From contig CAKPRQ010000002.1 of the NCBI GenBank assembly GCA_934182605.1, positions 44,361-108,360 of the forward strand: a stretch of DNA of 64,000 nucleotides. The letters run 5' to 3'. Shown here one piece after another: positions 11,609 through 11,773 of the stretch; within the stretch, counting starts at the first letter, position 1; each line of letters opens with the position of its first letter. The position numbers and the translations under genes were made by a program. This DNA comes from an uncultured Clostridia bacterium (lineage in GTDB: Bacteria > Bacillota > Clostridia > TANB77 > CAG-508). The notes under the pieces are model-generated. The model searched no databases. It saw nothing but the letters and a program-made list of their open reading frames with translations, and was not told where the DNA came from.

Positions 11609-11773
11609 AGAAATATGCTATTTTTAATAAGTAACTCGGCTTGTAAAAAATATAGAAACTCTAATTCTTATTTATGGCACCCTTCCGCTAATGCGAACTC
11701 TTTCCATAAATAAATCATAGAGTTTCTAATATTTTTTACTGCACATTCATACTTATTAAAAATAGCATATTTC
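11609..11773. repeat. ~165-bp nested palindrome between convergent rnj and pilC. It has a 24-bp perfect outer stem, two inner stems and a 26-nt apical loop.
   Basis: GAAATATGCTATTTTTAATAAGTA (11609-11632) pairs with TACTTATTAAAAATAGCATATTTC (11750-11773). Inner stems are TAAAAAATATAGAAACTCTA / TAGAGTTTCTAATATTTTTTA and TTATTTATGG / CCATAAATAA. The centre is CACCCTTCCGCTAATGCGAACTCTTT. Confidence 0.6.

Follow-up and report, generated by a model that had tools for sequence, protein, structure and literature searches.

The closest described counterparts of the element reported here, judged by architecture and genomic behaviour, appear to be the ERIC (IRU) sequences and the Correia and RUP repeats, which are like miniature inverted-repeat transposable elements (MITEs); its general kind would be that of the dispersed intergenic palindromic repeats. 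ERIC sequences are reportedly imperfect palindromes of approximately 100–200 bp, extragenic, present in either orientation and at low to moderate copy number. They are also said to occur across species, to be best conserved at the centre, to carry internal insertions in some copies and to be transcribed with the flanking genes. To our knowledge, ERIC sequences have neither a transposase nor demonstrated mobility, and we know of no strain-level flipping of their centre. Our subject is a palindrome of 164 bp, located at positions 11610–11773 of a 64-kb window (the whole stretch of DNA that was analysed, 64,000 nt from an uncultured Clostridia bacterium), in the spacer between the convergent genes rnj and pilC. 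Its middle 116 bp constitute a conserved module, here termed U, which recurs in a family of intergenic palindromes and occurs in opposite orientations in related strains. We consider the element to be one copy of a palindromic, ERIC/MITE-like DNA repeat, non-coding and non-autonomous, that is dispersed in low-GC gut Clostridia; it would be shaped by template switching and likely to serve at this locus as a terminator or insulator, a reading to which we assign a probability of roughly 0.55.

The U family is like ERIC in architecture (an extragenic, non-coding palindrome with a conserved centre, found in either orientation), but not in sequence; the hosts of ERIC are enterobacteria, whereas the host here belongs to the Firmicutes and has 26 % GC, and sequence homology is not expected. 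A 17–19-nt insertion in some U copies resembles the internal insertions of some ERIC copies, and with their arms the members of the U family form palindromes that are specific to the locus and reach 425 bp. The MITEs and their relatives (Correia or CREE of Neisseria, RUP of S. pneumoniae and the Tn3-derived TIMEs) are also small, non-coding, dispersed and palindromic, and lie at gene ends, where they are able to act as terminators or processing sites; the U family likewise lies at gene ends. One 315-bp subfamily resembles a classical TA-targeting MITE, but the pattern of the U family as a whole is the reverse, with a conserved centre and variable termini. The REP and REPIN-RAYT repeats are dispersed, extragenic and hairpin-forming as well, and REPIN doublets fold to hairpins of approximately 100 nt and are non-autonomous. 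Their ends are conserved and their spacer is variable, however, and no GTAG- or CGTC-headed REP unit of 20–40 nt was visible by eye in the U family. The unusual traits of the family are its conserved centre, its free arms and the frequent strain-level flipping of a core of 116–160 bp.

Architecture and distribution of the U family

A repeat search of the window identified a perfect 24-nt inverted repeat, with the left arm (GAAATATGCTATTTTTAATAAGTA) at 11610–11633 and the right arm at 11750–11773, separated by 116 nt. The 24-mer occurs as only this one pair within the window, where the number expected by chance is 0, and the two arms are the zones in which the inversion described below has its boundaries. 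The whole element lacks an open reading frame (ORF). RNA folding gave −65.9 kcal/mol for the + strand (z −14.0) and −70.9 kcal/mol for the − strand (z −11.1), and DNA folding gave −43.7 kcal/mol (z −12.3); in all three cases, no shuffled sequence was equally stable. The 165-bp nested palindrome proposed in an earlier reading of these letters without database searches (the sequence-only reading) is therefore real, with a start at 11609 that is one base too far out. The inner arms, 11645–11677 and 11704–11736, are 33 nt long and 79 % complementary.

Module U spans 11634–11749, and its core orientation is that of the + strand of the window. It opens with an unpaired, conserved 5′ loop (ACTCGGCTT, 11634–11642, + strand; family consensus CTCGGYT) and closes with an unpaired, conserved 3′ loop (TGCACATTCA, 11740–11749, + strand; consensus CACATTCG), and as these two sides are mutually non-complementary the internal loop they form is asymmetric. 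Inwards from the loops follows P2, a perfect 11-bp stem of 11643–11653 with 11729–11739, which varies in sequence across the family while its pairing is kept. P3 pairs 10 bp of AGAAACTCTA (11654–11663; consensus AGAAATTCTA) with TAGAGTTTCT (11718–11727; family counterpart TAGAATTTCT). P4 is a stem of 10–11 bp, CTTATTTATGG/CCATAAATAA(A), ending in TTATGG/CCATAA; its left half, CTTATTTATGG, lies at 11667–11677 and its right half, CCATAAATAAA, at 11704–11714, and TTATGG is invariant within the pattern-selected set of copies described below. The apical region (11678–11703, + strand) comprises 26 nt, CACCCTTCCGCTAATGCGAACTCTTT, exactly the letters quoted in the sequence-only reading, and is composed of CACCCTTCC, the mini-hairpin P5 (CGC-TAAT-GCG, 11686–11695) and GAACTCTTT.

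Members of the family were sought in a metagenome contig collection with an exact 23-base core pattern taken from the centre of the element, TTATGGCACCCTT-N10-40-TTTCCATAA. The pattern matches at least 120 metagenome contigs, which, where a source is named, come mostly from human or animal gut; the host loci have a median GC content of 27.6 %, and sporulation genes are present. The proposal of the sequence-only reading that a single copy would indicate a plain terminator fails in its premise, because the window holds one U-type element but there are many across genomes. Copy number in the family is low; when 1.02 Mb of retrieved DNA were searched with a profile, essentially nothing but the pattern-selected copies emerged.

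The unit common to the aligned copies is U, approximately 116 nt, which is exactly the segment reversed at the rnj/pilC locus. Seeding with an exact pattern imposes invariance on P4 and on part of the apical loops, whereas the CTCGG and CATTCG loops and P3 do not owe their conservation to it. The apical loops CACCCTTCC and GAACTCTTT are conserved around a variable P5, which covaries and in some copies carries the insertion of 17–19 nt. The U-bearing palindromes are most conserved at the centre and most variable at the termini, and outside U the arms differ in sequence by locus or subfamily and are always complementary. Arm types include TTAGACATTGGGACGG..., GGGGTCGGTTCC..., terminator-like GC hairpins and the arms of a denser palindrome family of the window, and the whole palindromes measure 157–425 bp (median 206). 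The 315-bp subfamily (b) has the terminal inverted repeat (TIR) TAGACATTGGGACGG and TA at both flanks in 9 of the 9 copies listed, flanks that are ambiguous because TA is itself palindromic; a single 966-kb contig bears two copies with its layout and TIR. In AT-rich contigs (L058 6669–10825, L110 4932–7475 and L066 2819–4030), a short repeat that is rich in G+C and contains GGGGTCGGTTCC has many occurrences; in some cases it makes up the outermost arms of a U-bearing palindrome, and it looks REP-like or like a Tn3 end.

Nothing corresponding to the U family came up in the literature searched, in Rfam 15 or in the collections of plasmids and phages. The core pattern had no match among viral contigs, blastn of the U consensus had none among plasmids and phages, and the whole window had none in Rfam at the gathering score; Rfam scans by E-value of the element and of locus L008 returned only generic AT-rich hairpins (miRNA precursors, and CRISPR-DR66 at E 0.46). 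A search for the exact arm 22-mer in one genome per species produced two single matches, in a Planctomycetota metagenome-assembled genome (MAG) and an uncultured bacterium, which we attribute to chance. A small-peptide reading of the apex (ATGGCACCC...) was discarded on inspection, as no frame or stop codon is conserved across copies, and a parS-like reading of TTCCAC-N4-GTGAAC was discarded because that stem, P5, covaries freely. Where the sequence-only reading had suggested a second MITE/PATE-type element, it was correct to expect a dispersed repeat family; MITE membership is not borne out. The element is short and non-coding and has multiple dispersed relatives. Conserved TIRs matching an insertion sequence are lacking, as is a transposase near any copy scanned; the ends of this copy bear no direct repeat, and a shorter allele of the locus is an imprecise internal deletion.

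The pattern of sequence change within the stems is of an uncommon type. The figures cover P3–P5, the variable arms not having been aligned by MAFFT. Within these stems, 97.1 % of cells are paired and 2.9 % are non-pairs; double-sided changes account for 96 cells, compared with 17 in shuffles, and one-sided changes for approximately 6. Double-sided changes affect 11 of 20 pairs, and the covariation score is 0.229, against 0.073 in shuffles. G-U pairs make up 0.4 % of cells and are seven times rarer than outright mismatches. RNA stems do not usually evolve with such Watson–Crick-only covariation, which is what repeated copying of one arm from the other, or a constraint on pairing in the DNA, would be predicted to produce. 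Isolated wobble-type mismatches in the long arms showed no strand asymmetry (25 versus 18). In 79 of 89 copies, the strand opposite the core orientation is the better folded one, by approximately 8 kcal/mol.

Every one of the 110 unique copies lies between genes. Relative to the upstream gene, the core strand runs in the same direction in 55 cases and in the opposite direction in 42, and so there is no preferred orientation with respect to transcription. Copies lie between divergent genes in 5 cases, between convergent genes in 14 and between tandem genes in 23 and 15, counts that include some redundancy from the same locus recovered in different samples; the rarity of divergent contexts is what an element that is tolerated, or has a use, at 3′ ends would be expected to show. 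A scan of the family copies revealed no recurrent neighbouring protein family and no linked transposase or recombinase gene. Two contigs carry pairs of U copies in the same orientation, at L034 60–114 and 6204–6258 (6.1 kb apart) and at L045 5667–5704 and 8836–8873 (3.2 kb apart). The genes between or beside double copies are, where checked, housekeeping genes (MurA-like, SpoIIR, RlmH, RecA and RecJ), and a Pfam scan of the genes between them, covering those of L034 and two of the three ORFs of L045, found nothing mobile. Long arms, of more than 40 nt, are common to the two L034 copies and might favour the loss or duplication of the intervening segment.

Inversion, loss and doubling of U between strains

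Orthologous loci were gathered from other assemblies by exact-protein look-ups, and the comparison of related strains that the sequence-only reading had recommended revealed that the 116-bp middle of the palindrome is inverted between them. An independent assembly with an identical PilC (L003) has the same element as the window. Three separate sequencing runs from Logan (L002, L140 and L141), in the same 90 % PilC cluster, have the same arms and flanks and a reversed middle. Aligned with the window element, L002 shows 2 mismatches when the 116 bp are reversed and 81 when they are not, with breakpoints exactly at the arms. In the L002-type flanks, the inverted repeat is perfect over 30 bp instead of 24, owing to a G>A change and an AAA insertion.

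Two loci with a PilC of 99 % identity (L006 and L007) retain only a 52-bp remnant hairpin; the missing DNA, approximately 112 bp, lay between two TATTTTT repeats on either side of the hairpin. In the remnant, ACAAGCCGAGT is still present and oriented as in the window, yet the flanks are of the L002 type, which implies at least two inversion events in this small clade. At a PilC identity of 93 %, two assemblies from the European Nucleotide Archive (ENA) made with other assemblers (L008 and L009) contain two family members, adjacent and in opposed orientations. The copy orthologous to the window element is flipped and has imperfect arms, which have diverged with compensation (TATGCTA/TAGCATA to TATAACTA/TAGTTATA). 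The orientation of U thus varies between strains, and each assembly shows one orientation. We considered the possibility that the flip in L002 was an artefact of k=31 assembly across a 30-bp perfect inverted repeat, and rejected it on the agreement of three independent runs and on the presence of the flip in L008 and L009, with imperfect arms and other assemblers.

In relatives with a PilC of 80–81 % identity, the pilC/rnj junction is rearranged, with no palindrome after pilC and no definable empty site. In one group of these (PilC 80 %; L010 11399–14763, also L011–L016), pilC is followed by a diversity-generating retroelement cassette consisting of bAvd, a reverse transcriptase (RVT_1) and a protein of 554–558 aa without a Pfam match, and in L015, L017 and L018 rnj is co-oriented with pilC. 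Together, the cassette and the co-orientation indicate that the junction is a rearrangement breakpoint in the lineage. The same group (L010 8880–9975, also L011–L016) has two short ORFs of 138 and 149 aa in place of the gene for a 363-aa pilT-like ATPase; the 149-aa ORF has a T2SSE match, and the pilT-like gene is perhaps disrupted.

Inversion is a property of the U family rather than of the rnj/pilC site. A strict test, in which both flanks more than 220 nt from the core had to be common to the loci compared, left 10 loci with at least two contigs, of which six vary in sequence and two of those six are polymorphic for orientation. The second flipping locus (L085 versus L089) carries a 186-bp element with 2 mismatches when reversed and 90 when not. 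Its arms have no similarity to those of the window (GAAATATGC... versus AAAGAACACTAAA) and are perfect only over the outer 13 bp; hence this flip does not stem from ambiguous assembly, and no recombination site is common to the two loci. When the flank test was relaxed, it suggested two more flipped loci, L069 and L092, which direct alignment showed to be different insertion sites.

Mechanism, termination and competing explanations

Slippage across hairpins, a form of palindrome instability, deletes DNA between short direct repeats. If U sits as a conserved 116-bp centre within locus-specific complementary arms, slippage of this kind across the hairpin would delete it, and switching of the replication template between the arms would keep them perfectly paired, extend the stems and occasionally copy the centre in reverse, leaving U flipped. 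Between them, the two processes would account for near-identical strains in which U lies in one orientation or the other, is reduced to a remnant hairpin or is present as two opposed copies. Template switching between inverted repeats is reported to make the arms alike, to lengthen stems and to invert the spacer or loop (PMC8604942, PMC13100816), and in hairpins and quasi-palindromes it causes the same arm and loop changes and can mimic compensatory change (PMC8794818). Four features are characteristic of template-switch mutations as described in these three sources: arm homogenization, outward stem extension, G-U-free multi-base compensation and loop inversion, all four of which are seen here; the inversions described there involve a few nt, in comparison with 116–160 bp here, and template switching is a mutational mechanism rather than a class of element (PMC8794818, PMC8604942, PMC13100816). 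Palindrome instability, and not a programmed switch, is probably behind the opposite orientations, and the idea of a cruciform-forming site, also raised in the sequence-only reading, is compatible with the instabilities observed.

The locus itself suggests what the hairpin may do. The rnj gene (RNase J, 611 aa; 9743–11578, + strand) has its stop codon 31 nt ahead of the palindrome, and pilC (T2SSF platform protein, 448 aa; 11829–13175, − strand), the final gene of a type IV pilus operon, has its stop codon 55 nt from it, within a spacer of 250 nt. The closest named PilC homologue, with 66 % identity, is from a MAG labelled Oscillospiraceae. The RNase J has a Lys-rich N-terminal extension of approximately 60 aa (window 9743–9950) and an ORF start of TTG; its homologues in relatives measure 648 and 701 aa, compared with 611 aa here. 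On the pilC-sense strand, the stem leads directly into a U-rich tract (...AUAUUUC followed by UUUAUUGAUAU). The statement in the sequence-only reading that no U-run flanks the palindrome accordingly holds for the + strand and not for the pilC-sense strand. The features of a Rho-independent terminator are incompletely represented, with an AT-rich 24-bp stem plus a nested stem and a U-rich tract on the pilC-sense strand only, and a consensus terminator scan of 11400–12000 found 0 terminator-like sites; an atypical terminator function is possible. At the rnj/pilC site, a hairpin formed from either strand (−66 to −71 kcal/mol) would most likely halt or insulate read-through and protect 3′ ends. 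On this view, the palindrome is probably a two-way hairpin terminator or insulator of convergent gene ends, a role that the sequence-only reading had offered as one option and that is made plausible by the lack of another terminator in the rnj–pilC spacer and by the depletion of the U family between divergent genes.

Several observations weigh against this combined picture of a template-switch-shaped repeat acting as a terminator or insulator. Flips at two of six informative loci represent a high rate for an unprogrammed event, and documented template-switch loop inversions are mostly of 4–8 nt, far below 116 bp. The unpaired loops (CTCGG.., ..CATTCG, CACCCTTCC and GAACTCTTT) are strongly conserved across many species while the stems drift, which points to sequence-specific recognition by a protein or to a function at the RNA level that template switching leaves unexplained. 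True MITEs conserve their termini, whereas the U family conserves its centre; for this copy, a target-site duplication and a clean empty site are both lacking, so that mobility, which we would place in the past of the family, is not demonstrated. Lastly, no terminator was called by the scan, and the stem that adjoins the U-rich tract is itself AT-rich, which leaves termination unproven.

The two orientations raise the possibility of a programmed inverton, in which a recombinase flips the 116 bp between the 24-bp repeats and so reorients a promoter, a terminator or an antisense RNA, with phase variation of the pilus as the outcome. Known invertons (the flgB and cwpV switches of C. difficile, the Mpi-controlled promoters of Bacteroides and fimS) have a segment of 100–300 bp, inverted repeats of 15–30 bp and an adjacent surface operon, and the element is alike in these respects: the ends of the inversion coincide exactly with the inverted repeat, it took place at least twice among strains with nearly identical flanks, a second family member is flipped (two of six informative loci being polymorphic), and a surface-structure operon, the usual territory of invertons, adjoins it. 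A promoter scan of the element gave weak AT-rich matches only, one of which (TTTACA-16-AAAAAT, 11647–11620, − strand) faces outward and spans U and the arm. This site scores 9/12 in AT-rich DNA, however, and inspection of the family consensus revealed no counterpart of it. The element is downstream of both convergent genes, with no orientation-dependent promoter facing a regulated gene; the crossover arms are unrelated between the two flipping loci and differ family-wide, so that there is no common site or repeat consensus; 116 bp is short for synapsis; and the entire invertible segment is here a hairpin. Each assembly shows one orientation, and the variation is between strains only. No recombinase was found in the approximately 9 kb scanned upstream of the element or, by Pfam marks, in the pilus operon downstream, and none recurs beside family members, although a trans-acting cognate invertase encoded elsewhere in the genome is possible. 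On this evidence, we regard a programmed inverton as unlikely. A variant that would accommodate the conserved loops is a self-contained flip-flop hairpin, in which a putative structure-specific enzyme recognizes the loops and inverts U regardless of arm sequence. This is a long shot; if true, U would represent a new type of phase-variable element at gene 3′ ends, widespread in gut Clostridia, and at this locus would act as a switch for read-through or antisense transcription where the type IV pilus operon ends.

The same loops could instead belong to a structured non-coding RNA, U being a hairpin of approximately 116–180 nt that acts as a 3′-UTR (untranslated region) element or small RNA, with purine-rich loops on the strand opposite the core that bind a protein. 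Loops that are conserved over covarying stems, the greater stability of that strand in 79 of 89 copies and the presence of the family in many species all fit such an RNA. We nevertheless judge it improbable, given the scarcity of G-U pairs and of one-sided changes, the lack of strand asymmetry among wobble-type mismatches, the absence of a favoured orientation with respect to adjacent genes (55 versus 42) and the flipping of the element between strains; Rfam offered no match at the gathering score and generic hairpins below it, no conserved promoter or terminator was seen when the family alignment was inspected and this copy scanned, and template switching can mimic compensatory change. It is quite doubtful that U is itself mobile and inserts into the tips of hairpins already in place, whether these are terminators or palindromic repeats of other kinds. 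Such mobility would explain the locus-specific arms of unrelated types, the outer TIRs of other repeat families, the two orientations per site and the exact identity of the conserved unit with the flipped segment. The 1.02 Mb contained no arms without U, however, and the subfamily-a arm lies beside U in 23 of 23 cases (in a sample selected for U); the only U-less allele at the locus is an imprecise internal deletion that retains part of U, no candidate enzyme was found, and it is unlikely that sister strains acquired independent insertions at one and the same nucleotide. A single copy in the window and a position between convergent genes are what a plain, oversized, locus-specific intrinsic terminator would present, and a chance or assembly artefact might do the same; we find either hardly credible in view of at least 120 related copies elsewhere, fold z-scores of −11 to −14, an identical sequence in an independent assembly (L003) and a flipped form in three Logan runs and two ENA assemblies from other assemblers.

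Related repeats in the window and wider significance

The window contains a second, denser palindromic repeat family, with eight copies in 64 kb (6085–6232, 9137–9284, 37559–37675, 43407–43547, 49935–50070 and 60142–60282; also 28498–28584 and 44975–45062) and the conserved centre ..AAGACCCGGATTGTGTAGCCCTAGCTATGTTTT... It has at least three arm types (AAATCGTGATATATAGCTATTT, AAAGCTTGGTATATAGCTATTT and AGTACTTATATATTAATATTTT) and the same design of conserved centre and exchangeable arms as the U element. The sequence-only reading had held that the arms of the rnj/pilC element differ from those of this family, which is not quite right, as they have 16 of 17 nt in common (shuffle p ~0.015); they are closer to the arms of the second L008 copy (p ~0.0015), and the likeness to the dense family hints only at a common TIR type. 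The dense-family centre starts with ACCCGGATTGT (9218–9228), 9 of 11 nt of which are identical to ACTCGGCTTGT in the U 5′ loop (11634–11644), and the L006 remnant (4400–4450; arms plus ACTCGGCTTGT) has the same layout as the dense family. From these sequence likenesses, the dense family may consist of old internal-deletion derivatives of U-type elements; a profile search found no link between the dense family and U. A solitary arm motif of the dense family, GATATATAGCTATTT, apparently without the remainder, lies at window position ~7755 (− strand), just downstream of an M18 aminopeptidase gene. Elsewhere in the window, four tandem 42-nt units at 52932–53141 (reported as overlapping 84-nt copies with 68–82 % identity to the reference) lie in an 824-aa ORF (51939–54413, − strand) and correspond to a repetitive protein segment.

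Because they undergo inversion, deletion and duplication between near-identical strains, U palindromes are useful as strain markers. The same behaviour means that tools which detect invertons from inverted repeats plus two orientations can be misled by them, and that they can break or mis-orient short-read assemblies. They also represent a natural example of large (116–160 bp) spacer inversion and arm extension of the type attributed to template switching. If the conserved loops bind a protein or act as RNA, the family would provide a handle on 3′-end regulation in organisms without genetics.

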